Below, in pieces: positions 50,063 to 64,000 of a stretch of 64,000 bases of DNA. A program made the position numbers and the translations under genes. The stretch lies in IMG/VR virus record IMGVR_UViG_3300042542_006078; one strand, 5' to 3'. The notes beneath the pieces were generated by a model. The model saw only the letters and a list, made by a program, of their open reading frames with translations. It did no database searches and was not told where the DNA came from. How positions within the stretch are numbered: the stretch's first letter is position 1; each line of letters begins with the position of its first letter. This DNA is from a virus (taxonomy: Duplodnaviria > Caudoviricetes).

Positions 50063-53000
50063 TTAGCTGGATGCGCTTTCTTTCCACTTCTCCCAGAACC
50101 TTGTGTTACTAATCATTTCTTGATAAGTGTGCTTGGCAAATCGCCTGTTCAAACGACCTTTTCTAATTCCTGATATTCTTACCACTATTTCAACTTGCTT
50201 GTTCTTCAGGTCTTCTCCAATAGCCTCAACAACCAAAGAATTCTTGGAAATGTAAGCCCCAACCAAAACTGGTGATGAACCAACTGCGCTTGTCACCTTG
50301 ATAGTGTCTTTTTCACAAACCTGTATGAATCTGTCATCAAGGAATGTCAAAATTGTATCACGATCAAGGCCACTTCCTCCAACCTTTACTACCATAATGT
50401 CTTCAAACCTTACCTCTGGCATCTCAACGCAAATTAGTTCGACATATTCCTCATAACCTTGTGATGTTACAACTGGAAGAATCGCATACTTGTCTCCCTG
50501 TGATCCTTGTGATCCCTGTGATCCCTGTGATCCCTGTGCGCCCGCAGAGCCTTGAAGACCACCAGAAGAACCTTGGTAGCCAGATTGTCCCTGTGCGCCC
50601 GCAGAGCCTTGAGACCCACTAAACCCATTTTGACCTTGATAACCAATATTCCCCGGATTTCCCTGATATCCAACAGCGGGAGGCATAACAAGAATATTCA
50701 AATTTTGATTATTTGAAGGAAGAGCTAAAGAACCAGAAACCAAACCAACAGGAACTACCCAATAACCACCAGCAGAAGATGGAAAATTGGTAACTTGATA
50801 AACATAAATTATACTTCCGCTACCATTTTCTTGAATATAAATGTAAGAGCCATAAGTTCCTCCTACAACAGGATAAATGAAAAGATTACCAATAATACTG
50901 TTTAAGTTATTACCAAAAACATCTAAGTTATCAATGTAAATTTGAGAGACTGCGGATGGATCAGAAGGATGGTTAAATCTCAAATATCCTTGACCGGGAT
51001 CAGAGTTTGTAGTCGATGTGCTAAACTGATACTTGATTCCACCCTTGTCTCCAAGACTACCCTGATTGCCCTGATTTCCCTGATTGCCTTGCGATCCTTG
51101 AAATCCTTGTAAACCAATTGAACCTTTAGGAGCAAACATGATGCTCAATGACTGACCATTTGTGGGAACTGTACCAGATAATCCAGAAACAGGGATCTTG
51201 TAATATCCAGCAGCAACTATAATTGTTCCAACTACAGTAAATGTGACTATAGTATTGCCAGCATCATTTCCAGCAACATAAATGTATCCAGCATATCCAT
51301 CTAAAATACTATAATTCAGATCAAATGTTGTAATCCATCCAGCTTGATTAATGCTATTTGCATCTGTATTGCTAATGTATATGAATAAAATACTTGGAAT
51401 GGAAGCATTGCTAAATCTAACATATCCACTACCGGGATTTGTATCGCTTACTAAATTGCTAAATGTATACTTTACGCCGCCTTTATCACCAATTCCTTGA
51501 TTGCCCTGATTTCCTTGAGCGCCCTGAAATCCTTGAAATCCAATATTACCTTGATATCCTTGAAGTCCTTGAAGACCTTGATGGCCTTGGAATCCATCAG
51601 CAGGGCCTTGGAATCCTTGATTTCCTTGGTTGCCTTGAGCGCCTTGGAATCCATCAGGAGTTCCTTGATAACCTTGCTGACCTTGGTTTCCTTGATTACC
51701 TTGTTCTCCCTGATGACCTTGCTGACCTTGATTGCCCTGATTTCCCTGATGTCCTTGATATCCGTCAGCAGGGCCTTGGAATCCTTGATTGCCTTGGTTT
51801 CCTTGGTGACCCTGATTTCCTTGATTGCCTTGGTTTCCTTGGTGACCCTGATTTCCTTGATTGCCTTGGAATCCTTGATCGCCTTGGTTTCCTTGGCGAC
51901 CTTGATTGCCTTGGTTTCCCTGATTGCCTTGGTTTCCTTGACGACCTTGGTTTCCTTGGTTTCCCTGATTGCCTTGGTTTCCTTGACGACCTTGGTTTCC
52001 TTGACGACCTTGGTTTCCTTGATACCCTTGATAGCCACCACCTTGATATCCTTGTGATCCTTGATATCCTTGTTGTCCTTGATAACCCTGATATCCTTGT
52101 TGTCCTTGATATCCTTGTTGTCCTTGATATCCTTGTTGTCCTTGATAACCCTGATATCCTTGTGATCCTTGGTATCCTTGTGATCCTTGGTTTCCTTGGT
52201 TTCCTTGGTTGCCTTGGTTTCCTTGACTTCCCTGATTTCCCTGTTGTCCTTGAAGTCCTTGATAACCTTGATATCCTTGTTGTCCTTGGTATCCTTGGTA
52301 TGCTTGATAGCCTTGATATCCTTGAAAACCCGATGATCCCGATGATCCTGCTAGACCTTGGTATCCAAGATCTCCTTGATAACCAATGTTTCCTTGATTT
52401 CCCTGATTTCCTTGTTGCCCTTGATATCCAATTAGTCCTTGAAGACCAATAAAACCTTGGTTTCCTTGGTTTCCTTGGTTTCCTTGGTTTCCTTGATTTC
52501 CTTGATTTCCTTGGATGCCTTGTGGTCCTGCATTTCCTTGATATCCTTGTTCTCCAAGAATGCCTTGTGGTCCTAAAGGACCAGCAATTCCTTGGGGTCC
52601 AGTTATACCTGTCTGACCTATAAGACCCTGTTCTCCCTGTTCGCCTTGCTCTCCCTGAGGGCCTTGACTTCCTGTTGAGCCTTGTCTTCCTTGATTTCCT
52701 TGCGATCCTTGGTTTCCTTGTGTTCCTTGATATCCAATATTTCCTTGATAACCAATTAGCCCTTGATTTCCTTGTTGTCCTTGGTTTCCTTGGTTTCCTT
52801 GTGATCCTTGATATCCAATATCTCCTTGATATCCTTGATCTCCCTGATTTCCTTGTCTGCCCTGATTTCCTTGGTTACCTTGATTGCCTTGGCGACCTTG
52901 ATTTCCTTGCGATCCTTGCAGGCCAATATCTCCTTGATATCCTTGTTCGCCTTGATTTCCTTGTTCGCCCTGATATCCTTGATCTCCTTGTCTTCCTTGC

Positions 53001-53938
53001 CTTCCCTGTCTTCCTTGGTTGCCTTGCGATCCCTGCGATCCTGTATCGCCTTGTGATCCAGTTAATCCCTGAATGCCTTGATATCCTTGTAAACCAAAAT
53101 CACCTTGATTTCCTTGTAAACCAATTTGGCCTTGATAGCCAATTTGGCCTTGATGGCCTTGGCGACCTTGATTTCCCTGTCGTCCTTGGTTTCCTTGAAC
53201 TCCCTGTAGACCTAAAATTCCTTGGTATCCTTGTCTTCCTTGGAATCCCTGAAGTCCTGTTGTTCCTTGATTGCCTTGTAATCCTGTTCCAATAGAGCCC
53301 TGTAGGCCTTGAACTCCTGTTATTCCTTGGTTTCCTTGACTGCCAGATGTTCCTTGGAATCCTTGATTGCCTCTTCCTCCTTGCAATCCTTGAAGTCCAG
53401 TCGCTCCTTGAACACCTTGTGCGCCATCTCCTCCTTGGTTGCCCTGACTACCTTGAAATCCTGCTCCAATTACACCTTGGAAACCTTGATTGCCTTGCTC
53501 GCCCTGATATCCAGCACCTTGAGTTCCTTGATTGCCTTGATTTCCTTGAATGCCTTGTAGACCTTGATTTCCTTGTTCTCCTTGCTCTCCTTGGTATCCT
53601 GCTGGTGTTCCTTGATAACCAACAATTCCTTGCAATCCTTGAAGACCAACTACACCTTGGCGACCTTGATTTCCTTGGTTTCCTTGTGATCCTTGTACTG
53701 TGCTTGGCGAACCTTGGGCTCCTTGTGATCCTGCTCTTCCCTGTTGGCCTTGTAGACCTTGTGATCCGGGTGTGCCTTGCGAACCTTGAGGGCCTGTTAT
53801 ATCTTGTCCAATATTTGCAGAAACAACAAAATCACGCAAATCTTGTGCTGAAATGCCACCTTGATTGTTATCGGCAAATATGCACAATAACTCCTCTTCG
53901 GTCCTGAAAGTTCCAGATTGGTTGCATTGATTTGCCAT
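50063..53938 (-). CDS. Collagen-like fibre protein (Gly-X-Gln), with two inserted globular domains
   Basis: Long G-X-Q triplet tract; two GDKGG[VI]KY-F domains; C-terminal [11 protein letters not shown] domain. Confidence 0.85.
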   Translation of the reverse strand: MANQCNQSGTFRTEEELLCIFADNNQGGISAQDLRDFVVSANIGQDITGPQGSQGTPGSQGLQGQQGRAGSQGAQGSPSTVQGSQGNQGNQGRQGVVGLQGLQGIVGYQGTPAGYQGEQGEQGNQGLQGIQGNQGNQGTQGAGYQGEQGNQGFQGVIGAGFQGSQGNQGGDGAQGVQGATGLQGLQGGRGNQGFQGTSGSQGNQGITGVQGLQGSIGTGLQGNQGTTGLQGFQGRQGYQGILGLQGVQGNQGRQGNQGRQGHQGQIGYQGQIGLQGNQGDFGLQGYQGIQGLTGSQGDTGSQGSQGNQGRQGRQGRQGDQGYQGEQGNQGEQGYQGDIGLQGSQGNQGRQGNQGNQGNQGRQGNQGDQGYQGDIGYQGSQGNQGNQGQQGNQGLIGYQGNIGYQGTQGNQGSQGNQGRQGSTGSQGPQGEQGEQGEQGLIGQTGITGPQGIAGPLGPQGILGEQGYQGNAGPQGIQGNQGNQGNQGNQGNQGNQGFIGLQGLIGYQGQQGNQGNQGNIGYQGDLGYQGLAGSSGSSGFQGYQGYQAYQGYQGQQGYQGYQGLQGQQGNQGSQGNQGNQGNQGNQGSQGYQGSQGYQGYQGQQGYQGQQGYQGQQGYQGYQGQQGYQGSQGYQGGGYQGYQGNQGRQGNQGRQGNQGNQGNQGNQGRQGNQGNQGNQGNQGRQGNQGDQGFQGNQGNQGHQGNQGNQGNQGHQGNQGNQGFQGPADGYQGHQGNQGNQGQQGHQGEQGNQGNQGQQGYQGTPDGFQGAQGNQGNQGFQGPADGFQGHQGLQGLQGYQGNIGFQGFQGAQGNQGNQGIGDKGGVKYTFSNLVSDTNPGSGYVRFSNASIPSILFIYISNTDANSINQAGWITTFDLNYSILDGYAGYIYVAGNDAGNTIVTFTVVGTIIVAAGYYKIPVSGLSGTVPTNGQSLSIMFAPKGSIGLQGFQGSQGNQGNQGNQGSLGDKGGIKYQFSTSTTNSDPGQGYLRFNHPSDPSAVSQIYIDNLDVFGNNLNSIIGNLFIYPVVGGTYGSYIYIQENGSGSIIYVYQVTNFPSSAGGYWVVPVGLVSGSLALPSNNQNLNILVMPPAVGYQGNPGNIGYQGQNGFSGSQGSAGAQGQSGYQGSSGGLQGSAGAQGSQGSQGSQGSQGDKYAILPVVTSQGYEEYVELICVEMPEVRFEDIMVVKVGGSGLDRDTILTFLDDRFIQVCEKDTIKVTSAVGSSPVLVGAYISKNSLVVEAIGEDLKNKQVEIVVRISGIRKGRLNRRFAKHTYQEMISNTRFWEKWKESASS

Positions 53939-53952
53939 CTTAGATTCCCTGT

Positions 53953-56289
53953 TTATTTCCAGCTATTCCAGAAATTGTTGTTCTTAATCATTTCTTCGTA
54001 AGTGTGAGTAAAGAATCGTCCTTTGACACCAATTCTTATTCCAGATAATCTCAATATTACTTTTACTTTTTCATTTTCAAGAAAATCACCATGAGCCTCG
54101 ATTAATACTTTGTCGCCATTAACATCTACTCCTGCCGATATAGGTTTTGATGTTACTATTCCAGTAACAATAATTGAGTCTTGTTCACAAACCTTGATAA
54201 ACTTTTCTTCAATTTGATGACTTTCCTTGATTACATTAGTTCCATTTCCACCTATATGAATAATCATGATGTCTTCAAATCTTACTTCTGGCATCTCGAC
54301 ACATGACAAAGCAACATACTCTTCATTGTCTTCGTAGCGAAGAGTAATAATTGCATTTTTCACACCAGCCGGACCTTGCGATCCTGTTGGCCCCTGATAT
54401 CCTGCTCGTCCTTGGCGACCTTGTACTCCCGCAATTCCTTGTCTTCCTTGAATTCCTTGTCTTCCTTGGTGTCCCTGATTTCCTTGTAATCCTTGTAATC
54501 CTTGACGGCCTTGAAATCCTTGACGGCCCTGATTGCCTTGATAGCCTTGGTTGCCTTGGTTGCCTTGATTTCCTTGATTTCCTTGATTTCCTTGATTTCC
54601 TTGACGACCCTGATTTCCTTGACGACCCTGATTTCCTTGATTTCCTTGACGGCCTTGATTTCCTTGATTGCCTTGATTTCCTTGATTTCCTTGACGACCT
54701 TGGTTTCCCTGATTTCCCTGATTTCCTTGATTTCCTTGGAATCCTTGATTTCCTTGATTTCCCTGATTTCCCTGATTTCCTTGGTTGCCTTGGTTGCCTT
54801 GGTTACCTTGGTTACCTTGGTTGCCTTGGTGGCCTTGATTTCCCTGCTCTCCTTGACGACCTTGGTTTCCTTGATTGCCTTGGTTACCTTGATTGCCTTG
54901 GCGACCTTGATTGCCTTGATGGCCTTGGTTGCCTTGGTTCCCCTGATTTCCTTGGTTGCCTTGACGACCTTGATTACCTTGACGACCTTGATGGCCTTGG
55001 TTGCCTTGGTTTCCTTGGTTTCCTTGATATCCTTGTGGACCTTGATTTCCTTGACGGCCTTGATTTCCTTGATTTCCTTGACGGCCTTGGTTGCCTTGGT
55101 TTCCTTGGTATCCTTGTGGACCTTGATTACCTTGATTTCCTTGGCGACCTTGATTACCTTGATTTCCTTGGCGACCTTGATTGCCTTGGCTACCTTGGTT
55201 TCCAATAAATCCTTGAAGACCAATAAGACCTTGGTTGCCTTGATTTCCTTGATTGCCTTGTATTCCTTGTCTTCCTTGATATCCTTGTCTTCCTTGATGC
55301 CCTTGTCTTCCTTGATATCCTTGATCTCCCTGACTTCCTTGTGGTCCAGCCGATCCAACAACTCCTTGTCTTCCTTGAGATCCTTGTTGTCCCAAAACGC
55401 CTTGACGGCCTTGGCTACCTTGTATTCCTTGTCTACCTTGAAAACCCTGACTACCTTGTCTTCCTTGGTGTCCTTGATATCCCTGTTCGCCTTGATTTCC
55501 TTGGTTTCCTTGTGAGCCTTGATTTCCTTGGTTTCCTTGTGAGCCTTGAAATCCTGCGCCCTGAAAACCTTGATATCCTCCAACTGTCCCTTGAAATCCA
55601 ATTGATCCTTGTCTTCCTTGTGATCCTTGATTGCCCTGAGATCCAGTTCCTTGATAACCTTGAAAACCTCTGAATCCGGCAGAACCTTGTCTTCCTTGAT
55701 TGCCTTGTACTCCTTGCGCTCCTTTTCCTCCTAATGAACCTTGAAGTCCTTGAAGACCTTGTAGTCCCTGAGCGCCATCATATCCCTGATATCCTTGATT
55801 TCCTTGGAATCCAGCACCTTGGACACCTTGATTTCCTTGTTGTCCTTGTACTCCAATATTTCCTTGAAGACCTTGAAGACCTTGAAGACCAAATCCTTGA
55901 AGACCTTGATTTCCTTGCTCTCCCTGTTCGCCCTGATATCCAGCAGGAGTGCCTTGAAAACCAAGAATTCCTTGAAGGCCTTGAAGGCCAACTATTCCTT
56001 GGTTTCCTTGTATACCTTGGTTTCCTTGATTTCCTTGTGGACCCGGCACAATACTTGGATCACCTTGGGCTCCTTGTGATCCTGCTCTTCCCTGTTGGCC
56101 TTGCAGGCCTTGCGATCCGTGGGCACCTTGTGATCCTTGTGGACCTGTTATATCTTGTCCGACATTCGCAGAAACAACAAAATCACGCAAATCTTGCGCT
56201 GAAATACCGCCTTGGTTGTTATCAGCAAATATGCACAATAACTCCTCTTCGGTTCTTAAAGTTCCAGATTGATTACATTGATTTGCCAT
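53953..56289 (-). CDS. Collagen-like fibre protein (Gly-X-Gln), paralog
   Basis: Near-identical N-terminus [10 protein letters not shown]..., (GNQ/GRQ)n tract, same [12 protein letters not shown]-terminal domain. Confidence 0.85.
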
Positions 56290-59486: not shown

Positions 59487-60311
59487 ATGATTGATATTCA
59501 GATTGACGAAGAAAAATTGAAATTTAATTTCATGTCTCCTTTATATGAATATTTTTTAGTATTTGATAACTATAAATATTATTGTTATAATAGACAAGAA
59601 TTAGATGAAAAATTAAAAAATAAAAATGTTATTACAAGATTGATTATTCACAATTCATATTGTGTGGCTTTATTTACAAATGCAGAACATTTTAATTGTG
59701 CAGAATTCCGTGATTTTTTGCAGGCTATTGTGAACAAAGTGCCTTTTTTCGCCGAATATGAACTTGTTGGTCTTAATCAAAACTTTGGGACAATTGAAGA
59801 ATATCTTCAAAATAAAATAACCAAGTTGGAAGAATTAGAATTTCTATATCATGGAACATCATCTTATTATGCTGATATTATTCTAAAAGAAGGAATTAAA
59901 CCGAGAAAACATACTAATGTTTCGGCTTCTTTCGCAGGAACAAATGAAGAAGGTAGCCCGAATTGCATTTATCTATGCACACATCCAAGATATGGATTGA
60001 AGAGGGCAGGAGCGGCAGCAATGAGAAAATCAAATGGAGAAAACACTCTTCTAAAAATAGACATTGCTGGTATTGATAAATCAAAATTAAAATGTTGCGA
60101 TCAAATAAATAAAAATGATATATCAATTGAAGAAAGTCTTTTGATAAGCAAAAATTTGCGTTATTTTGGAACAATTGAGCCAAATTATATTACAAATGAA
60201 GGCATTATTCCCTATAATCTTCTTAATATTAAGGCCATGCAATACTATGCCTCAAAAGAAAACAATGATCTAAATCGTGCAAGCACAGATTCATCGATGC
60301 AAGGCAAGTAA
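59487..60311 (+). CDS. Protein with C-terminal ADP-ribosyltransferase-fold-like domain
   Basis: FLYHGTS...ILKEGIKP...IYLCT...LLKID pattern. Confidence 0.5.
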   Translation: MIDIQIDEEKLKFNFMSPLYEYFLVFDNYKYYCYNRQELDEKLKNKNVITRLIIHNSYCVALFTNAEHFNCAEFRDFLQAIVNKVPFFAEYELVGLNQNFGTIEEYLQNKITKLEELEFLYHGTSSYYADIILKEGIKPRKHTNVSASFAGTNEEGSPNCIYLCTHPRYGLKRAGAAAMRKSNGENTLLKIDIAGIDKSKLKCCDQINKNDISIEESLLISKNLRYFGTIEPNYITNEGIIPYNLLNIKAMQYYASKENNDLNRASTDSSMQGK

Positions 60312-60934
60312 ACATTCAGGTCAAAATTAATTTTCTTGTAGTCTTCTTCCGTGAATAGTTTTTTCACGAAAGGACTTATTGCAAGATAATATGGAGAAAT
60401 CTTACCAAGATTGATCCATCTGAATATATTGTTGTTGATATATGATTCCTTATACTTATCAAAATTCACATCAGGTCCAAATGTCTTAACAATAAATTCT
60501 TTGGTCTTCTCAATACCTTCCAAAGCTTTTTGTATACCAACTCCAGTAACCTCAACCGTGTCCTTAGGATTATTTCTGACCTGATCGTATTTTTTCTTCC
60601 AAAGCTTCCATCTTTTCCAAGCCTTTTCTCCCACCAAACAATTTGGATCAATCAATGGATGATCATTATCACGGTTGATAGCTTTAAGAATATCAAGCTG
60701 GGCTCTGATATAAAGAGGATATTCTTCTTTGGTCAGAATACCATTTGTTTCACGAACTAACTTATAAGCAATTTTGAATATAAGTGATTTGCGTGGATCG
60801 CCTTTTTTCATAGTGGCGTGACGATAGTCTGGAAATTTTTTGCGACTCTGTTCGAGCCACATTGAAGCTATATGGCAAGCCTGAGTTTCAAGCTCATCCA
60901 TCTCATACTTCTCAGCAGACTCGATGATCCACAT
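60245..60934 (-). CDS. Hypothetical protein
   Basis: Likely start MWIIES at 60934 after AGAGGA. Confidence 0.65.
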   Translation of the reverse strand: MWIIESAEKYEMDELETQACHIASMWLEQSRKKFPDYRHATMKKGDPRKSLIFKIAYKLVRETNGILTKEEYPLYIRAQLDILKAINRDNDHPLIDPNCLVGEKAWKRWKLWKKKYDQVRNNPKDTVEVTGVGIQKALEGIEKTKEFIVKTFGPDVNFDKYKESYINNNIFRWINLGKISPYYLAISPFVKKLFTEEDYKKINFDLNVYLPCIDESVLARFRSLFSFEA

Positions 60935-61004
60935 GAAATTTTCCTCTTTTTTTTCGTGCTTCATCATACTCCTATACCTCAAGCGACTCAAGGTTATTTA
61001 TCCC

Positions 61005-61892
61005 ATGAAAATTGCAATGTGCCCACTAGTAAGCAGAGATCTTCCAAAAGCTATCAGAGCAACCAATTCTTGTAGAAATCAATTTCCAACTGAACAATTT
61101 CAAGTTGAAACAGTTGCAATTGTTAACTCAAAGAATCAAGAATTCATAGATGAGTTCTGCTCATGGTGCGAATCTGAACAAGTAAAATATGTCATTACTG
61201 AATCAAATGGAACACCAAGCAGAGGAAAAAATAGCGTTCTTCAGTTTCTTAGAGACTCGGACTATGACGGAGTAAGCATGACAGATGGAGATGATTTAGT
61301 CTATCCAACTGGAGCTTTGCAAATTGAAAGACATCTTCTTCACCATCCAACCACAGATGTTTTGATAGTTAAGCCTTCTGATCAAGTTACAAACCATGAA
61401 TCATATGGAAGTGTTCAAATTAAAGAAGGAAACTATGCTGTTTGTTGGGGTATGAATATTGTTAAGTTGGGATATACTTATGGTCCCGGTAAAAGCGAAA
61501 TATTTAATTCAGGACATTTTGCAGCAAGAAATTTAGGAGGACATGTTTTTTATAGCAAGAAGGTTGCACAACTTGTTCAATATGATGAAGAACAATTGTT
61601 GGGAGAAGACTTGCTTTTAGAATTTAATCTTCTCAAGCTTCATCAAGAAAGAAAAATATGTTTTTGGTTAAGTTTTGCAAGTGATGTACAGATGCTAGAC
61701 AGAACTGAGCAAGAAAGTATTCAATATACAAAGAATGGAACAGATGGGGCTCAATCTTTTGAAAGGTTAATTCAAAAAGTGAGAGAGATATTGCCTGAAG
61801 ACAGAAGTTCATTTGATGAATTGCCCGTAGAGTTCCCAGAATTGTTATTTTCACATGGCGAAAAAATTGAATGGTTGAAGCAAGTTTTTTGA
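61005..61892 (+). CDS. GT-A fold glycosyltransferase-like protein
   Basis: ESNGTPSRGKNS, DGDD (DxD), GEDLL; start MKIAMC at 61005. Confidence 0.65.
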   Translation: MKIAMCPLVSRDLPKAIRATNSCRNQFPTEQFQVETVAIVNSKNQEFIDEFCSWCESEQVKYVITESNGTPSRGKNSVLQFLRDSDYDGVSMTDGDDLVYPTGALQIERHLLHHPTTDVLIVKPSDQVTNHESYGSVQIKEGNYAVCWGMNIVKLGYTYGPGKSEIFNSGHFAARNLGGHVFYSKKVAQLVQYDEEQLLGEDLLLEFNLLKLHQERKICFWLSFASDVQMLDRTEQESIQYTKNGTDGAQSFERLIQKVREILPEDRSSFDELPVEFPELLFSHGEKIEWLKQVF

Positions 61893-61899
61893 AAATTGA

Positions 61900-61928
61900 T
61901 TGCAAAAAAGAATCTAAGTGATTACAAT
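61900..61928 (+). promoter_or_regulatory. Putative sigma70 promoter driving the non-coding region
   Basis: TTGCAA (61900-05)-17 nt-TACAAT (61923-28). Confidence 0.65.
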
Positions 61929-61934
61929 AAGAAA

Positions 61935-62447
61935 TGGCTAAGGGTAATTCTCACTCATTCCGCTCACAAGGTGTTATGAGTTAAGCCCAAAGCAAAGACA
62001 GAAGAAGGTTTCGCACTTAAAGACTTTCATCGTGATTGTCGCCTTTAATGTCTTTGTTGTCAAACCTGCGAGGCCCTTACCAAGGGTGGGTCTTTGTAGT
62101 TGTTCTACAACGAATGCTTTAACGGGAAGCATTGTACTCGCAGCAGCAGAGGTCAAGCCGGATAGAAATGATGCTGACTCTCAAGAAAAACCCCTGTAGT
62201 TTGTTTTGCAAAAAGCAAATGAGAAATGGAAAATTCTTGAGCTATTCGGTTTTAGGTTTGCTGCAAATAAAAGTGCGCCATCTGACTCAATCCCAAGAAG
62301 TTATTGCTGGAGTAAATAGGTTTAGTAAACAAGAATATGGCTTAAACGCCAAAAAATTGCTCTACTAAACAAGTTTACTCAATATCTCACTTTTAATGTG
62401 ATATATACAGCAATAACCATTTGGGTCAGCATCCCGTTCTAGTTTTT
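61935..62447 (+). ncRNA. Large structured non-coding RNA candidate (about 510 nt), class unknown
   Basis: No convincing ORF; upstream promoter; more than a dozen nested helices whose G-U pairs favour the plus strand; T run at 62443-47. Details under findings. Confidence 0.65.
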
Positions 62448-62507
62448 GATTGTAAATAAAAAAAACAAATTACCTAAATTAACAAATTTTTGCATAATTT
62501 AACATGA

Positions 62508-62536
62508 TTGACCTAACTGCTTTTTTCGGCTATAAC
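62508..62536 (+). promoter_or_regulatory. Putative sigma70 promoter for the polymerase gene
   Basis: TTGACC (62508-13)-17 nt-TATAAC (62531-36). Confidence 0.7.
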
Positions 62537-62597
62537 CTGACGAAGAATTAGCCTTCACTCACAGAGTGACGGAAAATGGCCTACAAGCTGGTGATTC

Positions 62598-63935
62598 ATG
62601 TATTTTGACTCTTTGTCCAAGTTGCTCTGTCAAATCGAGCGTAAGCCCCTTTTCTTGCGATTTAATCCCACTCCTTTTGATTTCACGGACAAGGATTCAG
62701 TCAATGAGATGCAATTCTTTCTTCCTGATGGTGTCACATTTCAAATTTTGCTCAAGGATGAATCTTTGCCTTTGGTTTTGAGTATGTTGCAGTTGTCTGT
62801 TTTTTCTGGCGACAACAAAGTCTTCGCATGGGATTGGAAATCATTTATTTCACATGTTCTTGCAAAGACTGGCAAGTTATATTCTATTGAATCATCTGTT
62901 GTTGATCTTAAGATTTTAGAAAGTTACAACGGAATCAAGAAATCATGTCCTGAGACATTTGTTGAGTGTTTTAACAGAATAAAGTATTTGGTATCATCTG
63001 GTCTATGGAAAGACTGTGAAAATATTTACAAGAAGATTCATTTGCCTTTGATGACAAATGTCATTCCTTATTTGGAAACAGTAGGCATTCTTGACTTGAA
63101 TGCTGGCAAGAAGGTTCATGCTCATTATGAGATTGATGGTCAGGAGAATGGCAGATTAAGATGTCACAATGCTTTTAAGAATGGTTTTGTGCCACATGCA
63201 ATGGGATCGGATATCAAGGAGAAGTTGAAGCCTGTCGGCTATGATTCTCTTTTCATGGCTTTTGATTACAAGGGCATGGAAGCGTTTGTTCTTGCCTATT
63301 TGAGCAAAGACGAAAGGTTGATGAGTTTTTGTCAGGAAGAGGACATTTATGCTTCTTTGGCAAAGTCATTATTTGGATCGAATTCTGAAAAAATTGATCG
63401 TGAATTGGTGAAAAAATGTTTTTTGCCGGTTATATATGGACAGTCGGCCCGTTCTCTTTCTTTGCGTTGCGGAATGGCTGCTGATGTCGCAGAAGGCGTT
63501 GTGGAACGAATTAGTTCTTTGTTCAATACTGCGCTTTCATTCGTTGCTGATTGTGAAGAAAAAGTAAAACAAAATGGATTTGCCAAAGATGTTTTTGGTA
63601 AAAGAAGAAACAACTTTGAGTTAGGCAAGGAATATTTAGCCAGAAACTTTGCTGTGCAATCACCCGCATCAACGATATGTCTTGAGAAACTTATCAATCT
63701 TCATATTTCCATACAAAACTTAAATCAAAGCTTGAAGGATAAGGCTCAAATTTCTTATACTGTTCATGACGGTTATGTTTTGTATGTTACGAAGGATAAT
63801 TGGAAACAAGTTTACAAGAGAAGTATGGAAGCATTGTGCGGAGAATCCGAGCTTTGTCCCGGTCTGCGACTGAAGGTTTCATGTCGTGGAGGGAGAAACC
63901 TGAATGACCTGAAAATGATTAAAGATCGAAAGTGA
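62598..63935 (+). CDS. Divergent family A DNA polymerase, apparently lacking the thumb
   Basis: NGRL, motif A FDYKGMEA, motif B RELVKKCFLPVIYG, GKRR, NFAVQSPAS, motif C TVHDG. Confidence 0.85.
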   Translation: MYFDSLSKLLCQIERKPLFLRFNPTPFDFTDKDSVNEMQFFLPDGVTFQILLKDESLPLVLSMLQLSVFSGDNKVFAWDWKSFISHVLAKTGKLYSIESSVVDLKILESYNGIKKSCPETFVECFNRIKYLVSSGLWKDCENIYKKIHLPLMTNVIPYLETVGILDLNAGKKVHAHYEIDGQENGRLRCHNAFKNGFVPHAMGSDIKEKLKPVGYDSLFMAFDYKGMEAFVLAYLSKDERLMSFCQEEDIYASLAKSLFGSNSEKIDRELVKKCFLPVIYGQSARSLSLRCGMAADVAEGVVERISSLFNTALSFVADCEEKVKQNGFAKDVFGKRRNNFELGKEYLARNFAVQSPASTICLEKLINLHISIQNLNQSLKDKAQISYTVHDGYVLYVTKDNWKQVYKRSMEALCGESELCPGLRLKVSCRGGRNLNDLKMIKDRK

Positions 63936-63943
63936 AGGAAAAA

Positions 63944-64000
63944 ATGATTGAGATTGTTCACAATTTTCCGATAACAGAAGAAGAATTTTTGGACCTTGAC
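63944..64000 (+). CDS. Start of next gene (3'-truncated by window)
   Basis: SD AAGGA, then MIEIVHNFPITEEEFLDLD. Confidence 0.5.
   Translation, partial: MIEIVHNFPITEEEFLDLD

Follow-up and report, generated by a model that had tools for sequence, protein, structure and literature searches.

A Large Structured RNA Encoded Directly Upstream of a Thumb-Less Family-A DNA Polymerase in Giant Freshwater Phages

Introduction

In ColE1-type priming, with which the R-loop origins of phage T4 (oriF and oriG) and the primary origin of phage T7 are grouped, a folded transcript (RNA II) is paired with Pol I, an accessory enzyme for ColE1. Retrons and defense-associated reverse transcriptase (DRT) systems encode a non-coding RNA (ncRNA) upstream of their own polymerase on the same strand, and T4 genes 43 and 32 are established cases of autogenous control through structures in the leader. 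Large structured RNAs of unknown function are, to our knowledge, rare, and most of them, GOLLD, ROOL, and OLE being examples, have no consistent protein partner that points to their job. Among phage polymerases, divPolA1 has a truncated thumb, has lost the catalytic residues of its exonuclease, is encoded beside a ‘regular’ polymerase, and is followed by replication genes; it was described in 2024 without an assigned function (Yutin et al., 2024, Virol J 21:200, PMC11348598). Here, a computational analysis is presented of one locus in a 64,000-nucleotide (nt) stretch of viral DNA (IMG/VR virus record IMGVR_UViG_3300042542_006078; hereafter, the window), a piece of a very large freshwater phage, in which a large structured RNA (61935-62456, + strand) is encoded shortly before a thumb-less family-A DNA polymerase (62598-63935, + strand). 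No description of this RNA, or of its pairing with a polymerase, was found in the literature. The RNA has an invariant genomic partner wherever it is recognized and lies at or near an apparent start of replication, which yields a testable hypothesis on how giant phages begin to copy their DNA and bears on the purpose of the thumb-less polymerase.

Structure and Extent of the RNA

A 705-nt gap without a credible gene (61893-62597) separates the 445-amino acid (aa) polymerase open reading frame (ORF) from a 322-aa ORF (60924-61892) that has no family match. Within this gap, 61935-62456 (+ strand) encodes a large structured RNA that has its own sigma70-type promoter and represents a new family. 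The RNA is ∼520 nt long in the window and ∼440–470 nt long in relatives, and the + strand of the gap folds at −198 kcal/mol (z −5.7 vs. shuffles), compared with a z of −3.8 for the − strand. The promoter, TTGCAA-17-TACAAT (61900-61928, + strand; promoter scan), stands directly after the stop codon of the 322-aa ORF and aligns (alignment A8) with TTGACA-17-TATAAT in the related loci L005 and L014, TTGACA-17-TAGAAT in L006, and TTGACT-17-TACAAT in L012; the closest relatives have TTGACA-17-TATAAT, a near-perfect host-type promoter, right behind the stop codon of the upstream ORF. Because the window promoter aligns with the TTGACA-17-TATAAT of the relatives, the start of the RNA was placed near 61935.

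The RNA has a closed architecture, in which a 5′ multi-hairpin junction is followed by variable central domains, and a long-range helix and a pseudoknot join the 3′ end to the 5′ domain. A variable 5′ leader (61935-62057, + strand; A8) contains a conserved AAGGU…ACCUU hairpin with a window-specific insertion. It is followed by the conserved 5′ domain (62058-62180, + strand), which was defined by covariance models R1 and R2 and by pair counts, and in which the helix ACCU (62064-62067)/AGGU (62150-62153) closes a three-hairpin junction whose third hairpin has the loop ACGGG (62122-62126). Overlapping the end of this domain, the helix CGGAUAG (62159-62165)/CUAUUCG (62243-62249) encloses a variable insert (62159-62249, + strand), and all seven of its pairs covary in alignment A4. 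The central/3′ domain (62292-62425, + strand) consists of nested long hairpins, 62292-62309/62408-62425 and 62310-62327/62363-62380 (inverted repeats I7 and I8, the minimum-free-energy fold, and A4), and includes a conserved UUUAAAC-containing hairpin. The 3′ end (62423-62456, + strand) comprises, on covariation, the long-range strand GUCAGCA (62425-62431), which pairs with UGCUGAC (62172-62178, + strand) in the 5′ domain, and the pseudoknot strand CCCG (62433-62436), which pairs with loop positions 62123-62126; it closes with the conserved GAUUGUAAA (62448-62456), kept in alignment A9.

Covariation supports this fold at several levels. Compensatory changes were found in 28 of 35 pairs among 16 relatives (RNAalifold). 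For the four 5′-domain helices in 19 sequences, whose alignment was fitted to the covariance model and is thus biased towards structure, 99.1% of cells are paired (82% in shuffled controls), both partners vary in 13 of 18 pairs (a level reached in 0 of 500 shuffles), and sliding the partner by one to three columns reduces pairing to 28–43%. The long-range contacts were recovered from a structure-blind MAFFT alignment: the loop reads CGGG in eight rows and CGAG in eight rows and covaries with 3′ CCCG or CUCG in the identical rows, and the long-range helix shows U:A, C:G, and A:U variants in covarying columns. Automatic strict helix finding on the MAFFT alignment returned few helices owing to register shifts, and the long-range pairs were therefore read from aligned columns, partly by eye. 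Distant members, also read by eye, carry CAAG/CUUG in the loop contact (L003 and L026), GCAGAC/GUCUGC, and CCCGA/UCGGG, and L038 and L040 have additional variants of the long-range helix. G-U pairs occur on the + strand, one pair being G-U in 12 of the 19 sequences, and stop-free frames in the RNA core span only 39–97 aa and are not conserved. Together with the stronger + strand fold and the covariation, these features identify the element as a real + strand RNA, and not a protein-coding or DNA element. A hidden protein gene in the gap was rejected on the short unconserved frames, on indels that do not come in threes, and on covariation that fits an RNA.

The RNA does not belong to a known family. 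Rfam 15, including GOLLD, ROOL, group I and II introns, RNase P, tmRNA, and 6S, gave no match at gathering thresholds over the whole window and only chance-level matches (E 4.8–9.7) in 61700-62750 when E values up to 10 were allowed; over 20 related loci it gave just three tRNA matches, none within the upstream regions, and ARAGORN found no tRNA or tmRNA. A group I intron splitting the polymerase gene was also rejected, there being no upstream exon; the upstream gene is the unrelated 322-aa ORF in the window and a minus-strand gene in relatives. In being large, multi-domain, phage-borne, strongly covarying, and of unknown function, the RNA resembles GOLLD, ROOL, and OLE (Rfam; PMC12286853); however, it occurs once and is tied to one strictly fixed partner gene, an arrangement not reported for GOLLD or ROOL.

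The conserved part of the RNA ends at ∼62456, 141 nt ahead of the polymerase ATG (62598), and the intervening spacer (62457-62597, + strand) is AT-rich, with a GC content of 0.33 vs. 0.38–0.40 in the flanks. In 17 relatives the spacer is 77–159 nt long with 20–45% GC, lower than in the respective polymerase gene every time, and its sequence is little conserved. A Shine-Dalgarno-like GGUGA precedes the ATG. A first-pass annotation of the window, made from the sequence alone, had described a structured RNA ending shortly before the polymerase gene on the same strand, an AT-rich stretch between them, and a second promoter in that stretch. The RNA, now with covariation behind it, and the AT-rich spacer were both confirmed, whereas the promoter was upheld in part: consensus-like hexamers (TTGACC, 62508-62513, and TATAAC, 62531-62536; 17-nt spacing, 62508-62536) do lie there, but they are a by-eye match that is missing from the list of the scan tool, and their sequence is not kept in relatives. 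The spacers of two distant relatives contain near-perfect palindromes of the type ATGATTGTACAATCAT, one in L003 (L003:3394-3979) and two in L026 (L026:2527-2980), standing where the window group has the half-site-like GATTGTAAA (62448-62456); from their sequence, these palindromes look like putative sites for a dimeric DNA-binding protein.

Exact matches to 61975-62194 and 61974-62178 were found among metatranscriptome contigs of two independent freshwater studies; the rest of 61000-64000 is unmatched, the uncovered stretches of these 3 kilobases (kb) not being evidence of silence. These matches hint, weakly, that the RNA is produced and that its stability or abundance exceeds that of the neighboring messages.

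Linkage of the RNA and the Polymerase

A polymerase-family scan of IMG/VR yielded 80 loci, to which three from a first single-protein scan were added (two of them on the same contigs), and the RNA was sought first with nhmmer and subsequently with two covariance models (R1 and R2) built on the 123-nt 5′ domain. R2 recognized the RNA at E < ∼3e-4 in 26 of 59 sources, in each case on the strand of the polymerase gene and 360–650 nt ahead of its start, and gave no credible match elsewhere in the 59 sources. Loci missed by R2 have a conserved non-coding region of ∼500–700 nt at the same place, and these regions group into subfamilies. Across 40 representative loci, the upstream regions had a mean z of −3.4 vs. 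−0.8 for a control inside the polymerase gene (both from an approximate dinucleotide-preserving shuffle with a reduced shuffle number); z was weak at some distant loci, including L067, L055, and, in a subgroup with a small ORF, L065, L066, L071, and L074. A subgroup whose polymerases are only 28–32% identical keeps the AAACC… motif, the ACGRG-loop hairpin, the AGGU strand, the long-range helix, and CYCGGU, with compensatory changes in 28 of 58 pairs.

The reverse search, from RNA to polymerase, scanned a degenerate motif of the 5′ domain over IMG/VR and 241 million metagenome records and recovered 25 and 19 model-confirmed RNA copies, respectively, some contigs being present in both sets. A polymerase gene lies 417–570 nt downstream on the same strand in 25 of 25 IMG/VR copies and in all 15 metagenome copies with enough downstream sequence, i.e., in 40 of 40 testable copies; both the RNA and the polymerase were missing at unconfirmed pattern matches. 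In each of the three large records in which the model detects the RNA (381, 226, and 173 kb), one copy is present. The upstream neighbor varies, from the 322-aa ORF in the window to a minus-strand gene in L002 and L003, but the RNA stays beside the polymerase. These observations strongly support the conclusion that the RNA and the polymerase belong together genetically. Co-occurrence and fixed order of the two, which the first-pass annotation had put forward as a check, thus hold down to ∼28% polymerase identity, and the occurrence in unrelated contexts that it named as contrary evidence was not seen, the RNA being present once per genome and never away from the polymerase. The resulting replication module has the order RNA, thumb-less PolA, ∼185-aa helical protein, DnaB-like helicase, with the RNA as its ancient and fixed first element in this lineage of giant freshwater phages.

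Two groups of relatives differ in their upstream regions. In one subgroup (L068, L071, L065, L078, L075, and L074), a different-looking structured element is followed by a small conserved ORF with a Shine-Dalgarno-like AGGAGG, situated ∼150–250 nt before the polymerase gene, between that gene and the structured RNA. In L018, L021, and L022, whose polymerases are 52% identical to that of the window, a structured region with higher GC (z −6.6), missed by the RNA model, lies ∼700 nt upstream. The L018 group shares only AAAACCU…AGGUCA..GGAUAGAAAU with the window RNA, and the similarity is patchy; the L018-type region may be a remodeled version of the window RNA.

The Thumb-Less Polymerase

The 445-aa protein (62598-63935, + strand) comprises a reduced exonuclease-like N-terminal domain, a palm, and fingers, as seen by Pfam, AlphaFold, Foldseek, and profile alignment. 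It matches Pfam DNA_pol_A (PF00476) at 5e-30 over profile positions 103-379 only, with positions 1-102 unmatched, and its AlphaFold model (pLDDT 93) matches the Bst, Klenow, and Taq large fragments in Foldseek at E values of about 1e-19 (Bst Pol I, 2e-19). The family-A signatures are in place: motif A with D223 and E228, motif B with R268, K272, L276, and Y280, and motif C with H390-D391-G. Among 55 family sequences, D223, E228, R268, K272, H390, and D391 are invariant and Y280 is nearly so, and the second acid of motif C is replaced by Gly or Ser. E228 is the steric-gate Glu of DNA-dependent DNA polymerases, and, on its sequence, the protein is probably an active DNA polymerase.

The first-pass call of a thumb-less enzyme proved correct. 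The family profile aligns residue 169 onward with the Bst chain from 303 onward, just past the thumb, and the thumb itself (helices H-I, ∼95–100 residues between the N-terminal palm helix and the GRL strand) is absent; only four residues lead from …LETVGILD (166) to GKKVHAHY (170-), vs. ∼95 from …IERNGVKID to GRVHTSY in Klenow, a mapping done by eye as the MAFFT placement N-terminal of residue 165 was unreliable. A shrunken exonuclease-like domain occupies the N-terminal 133 residues, and its ExoI D-x-E reads D28-F-T30. The family has at least 191 members of ∼440 aa on contigs of up to 513 kb, and the thumb is absent throughout. Position B3 of motif B is Leu, as it likewise is in PolA clusters with ‘broken’ thumbs (PMC10201439).

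The closest published counterpart of the polymerase is divPolA1, with which it shares a truncated thumb, replaced exonuclease residues (D-F-T), a second polymerase, and replication genes downstream. The divPolA1 of Flavobacterium phage immuto has the same layout in 441 aa and is a remote match (hhalign probability 64%, E 6e-5, 23% identity over 269 columns); however, its motif C differs, and immuto has no upstream non-coding gap and thus no room for the RNA. In GenBank phages, tblastn with two family members matched only LR756511.1 (595 kb), leaving the immuto phages and the listed LR796xxx records unmatched; R2 gave no credible match on LR756511.1, which reflects divergence and is no proof of absence.

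Three of five large related records (G002, G005, and G006) encode a split DnaE-type Pol III alpha (G002:C1:126583-126900 + 136233-136727; G005:C1:197583-202950; G006:C1:48753-54838), and none of the five encodes PolB; PolA is therefore a second, accessory polymerase in those three. The two DnaE ORFs (∼470 aa and ∼460–920 aa) are 5–10 kb apart, with other DNA between them.

Position Relative to the Likely Replication Origin

The 533-kb record G003 (CheckV 100% complete) has a V-shaped cumulative GC skew with its global minimum in the 500-nt bin 512501-513000, and the non-coding region before its polymerase lies at 512694-513250. Neither DnaA nor ribosomal protein L2 was found in G003, so it is not a piece of a bacterial chromosome. 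In three other records, the long positive-skew arm starts upstream of the RNA, by 3.5 kb in G005, 14 kb in G002, and 5.4 kb in the window; a GC-skew check for an origin, suggested in the first-pass annotation, thus placed the minimum at the locus in the complete genome and 3.5–14 kb away in the rest. The locus is taken to be origin-proximal and possibly at the origin, the skew not being offered as proof. A DNA-level origin with iterons was rejected, as no repeat family surrounds the RNA.

Possible Functions of the RNA

We tentatively favor, at somewhat less than an even chance, an origin-proximal replication RNA that would help to initiate or control replication from an origin located at or close to the locus. 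The RNA would be transcribed at the origin and folded such that its 3′ portion can engage the neighboring AT-rich DNA; it could then be extended by the low-processivity PolA, with a hand-off to the phage DnaE-type replicase that some, though not all, relatives encode. In this, the locus resembles ColE1 RNA II/Pol I: a promoter-driven, folded transcript of ∼500 nt ends before AT-rich DNA, a Pol I-type enzyme is encoded beside a separate Pol III-type replicase (three of five records), and the locus is at or near the GC-skew minimum. It differs in that the RNA is closed and pseudoknotted, the polymerase has neither thumb nor 5′ nuclease, and the replicon is a phage of >380 kb, not a plasmid. An equivalent of the antisense RNA I was not found here; the single minus-strand promoter-like match (62063-62035) lies partly in the window-specific insertion, and its hexamers differ in relatives (A8, by eye). 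A role of the RNA in replication, and any contact with the polymerase, are inferred; if the RNA does prime or assist the polymerase, a ColE1-like or ribonucleoprotein mechanism of replication would operate in viruses.

Several observations weigh against an origin-proximal replication RNA. A closed pseudoknotted fold kept over deep divergence exceeds the needs of a primer. The scan of the window returned no terminator-like site, and no processing site or RNase H-type signal turned up, no search having been aimed at such signals; a defined primer end therefore cannot be named for the phage RNA, nor an RNase H site, in contrast to ColE1. Contigs from RNA libraries cannot prove transcription, ends, or levels. 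Neither DnaE nor PolB was found in G003 and G004, so that the picture of a Pol I-like accessory enzyme may not fit all members. The skew switch is kilobases off the RNA in three of four records, and GC skew tracks the direction of transcription besides replication; moreover, G003, the record with exact coincidence, has an RNA of a diverged type, invisible to the model (its cluster relatives L031 and L033 score E 0.85 and 1.5). For these two reasons, the dependence on transcription and the diverged RNA of G003, the skew was read as placing the locus near, and possibly at, the origin, and not as proof. Iterons or repeated boxes were not found around the RNA.

The RNA might instead act in cis, as a structured leader of the operon of replication genes (polymerase, 185-aa protein, and helicase), controlling its transcription or translation, for example by binding an encoded protein or a metabolite, in the way that T4 genes 43 and 32 control themselves. 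The same strand, the fixed order, and the short spacer of 77–159 nt in all relatives measured are what a leader would show, as are the absence, in the window, of an intrinsic terminator separating RNA from polymerase, the weak and unconserved promoter-like hexamers of the spacer, and the small ORF that stands, operon-like, between RNA and polymerase in one subgroup. Yet a closed pseudoknotted fold of 440–520 nt far exceeds known phage translational operators, the conserved fold stops ∼140 nt before the ATG, leaving the ribosome-binding site outside, and, as a weak point, the RNA-library contigs span only the 5′ half of the RNA and not the junction with the gene. A leader is thus considered unlikely, though a serious contender; it would be among the largest known regulatory leaders of a replication operon. 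An independent trans-acting ncRNA unrelated to the polymerase, such as a decoy against a host defense or factor, which would sit beside the polymerase through inherited gene order, is consistent with the RNA's own consensus host-type promoter and with the existence of other large phage RNAs of unknown function (GOLLD and ROOL; PMC12286853). The block of polymerase, 185-aa gene, and helicase is moreover syntenic throughout the lineage, which makes conserved order alone a weak sign of joint function. Inherited order accounts poorly, however, for an RNA that remains by the polymerase while its upstream neighbor changes, that keeps order, strand, and distance down to 28% polymerase identity, and that never occurs elsewhere or in extra copies, and we regard this explanation as distinctly unlikely.

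The boldest proposal is that the RNA is a dedicated cofactor, whether as an obligatory origin primer, as a duplex-holding subunit in the place of the lost thumb, or as a template, so that the pair would be a ribonucleoprotein family-A DNA polymerase; were this improbable reading true, the enzyme would be of a kind not described before among replication enzymes. In the more specific form raised by the first-pass annotation, as a scaffold replacing the thumb or a template for a defined DNA product in the manner of retrons, DRT systems, and telomerase, the proposal is very doubtful. It draws on the thumb being truly missing throughout the ∼440-aa family, on the inseparability of the two genes wherever the RNA is recognized, and on a layout that recalls retrons, DRT2/DRT9, and telomerase, a structured ncRNA being encoded just ahead of the polymerase gene and in the same direction. 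Those systems, however, use reverse transcriptases, whereas the protein here lacks the reverse-transcriptase fold and retains, with the steric-gate Glu E228, the canonical motifs of a DNA-templated DNA polymerase, and no template-like repeat or product is evident. Further against a cofactor, the thumb-truncated divPolA1 of Flavobacterium phage immuto has ahead of it just 56 nt between the last gene and the end of the record, and the partner of the polymerase in every locus checked is the 185-aa protein gene as well, not the RNA alone. Adjacency to the polymerase gene would be just as likely if the RNA were a leader, or an origin transcript making no contact with this enzyme. The Leu at B3, shared with the ‘broken’-thumb PolA clusters (PMC10201439), suggests that the thumb was lost gradually without an RNA.

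Neighboring Genes and Source Phage

The gene for a ∼185-aa all-helical protein starts at 63944 (63944-64000, + strand) and is cut by the end of the window; in relatives it lies at L001:5335-5898 and L004:4335-4895. In all 40 representative loci it comes next after the polymerase gene, in many cases with an overlap at the polymerase stop codon, and its product is 47–86% identical across loci, a conservation above that of the polymerase. Weak Sigma70_r2 matches were obtained for 7 of 37 members (Pfam), and a fold search against the PDB gave no match at E 0.001 or better; the size and position of the protein recall a phage late sigma factor, for which it is a tentative candidate. Complex prediction for the polymerase and the ∼185-aa protein scored 0.00, which speaks neither way. 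The next gene encodes a DnaB-like helicase (Pfam match).

A blastn search of GenBank phages with 61000-64000 gave no match, and the nearest available record, G001, a 35-kb viral fragment rated 8% complete, does not contain the locus. The window DNA recurs in lake and other freshwater metagenomes from many studies. A ∼250-aa conserved protein without a family match is encoded at 60245-60991 (− strand) in the window and at L002:2629-3393 and L003:2644-3393; in relatives its gene is divergent from the RNA promoter, and in the window the 322-aa ORF is inserted between the two. Elsewhere, the window encodes ribonucleotide reductase, CTP synthase, aspartate carbamoyltransferase, an SMC-like ATPase, and collagen-like fibers, the last being presumably the products of a tandem pair of genes (50063-56289, − strand) for collagen-repeat proteins of 1291 and 778 aa (Pfam Collagen, 9e-118 and 3e-86).

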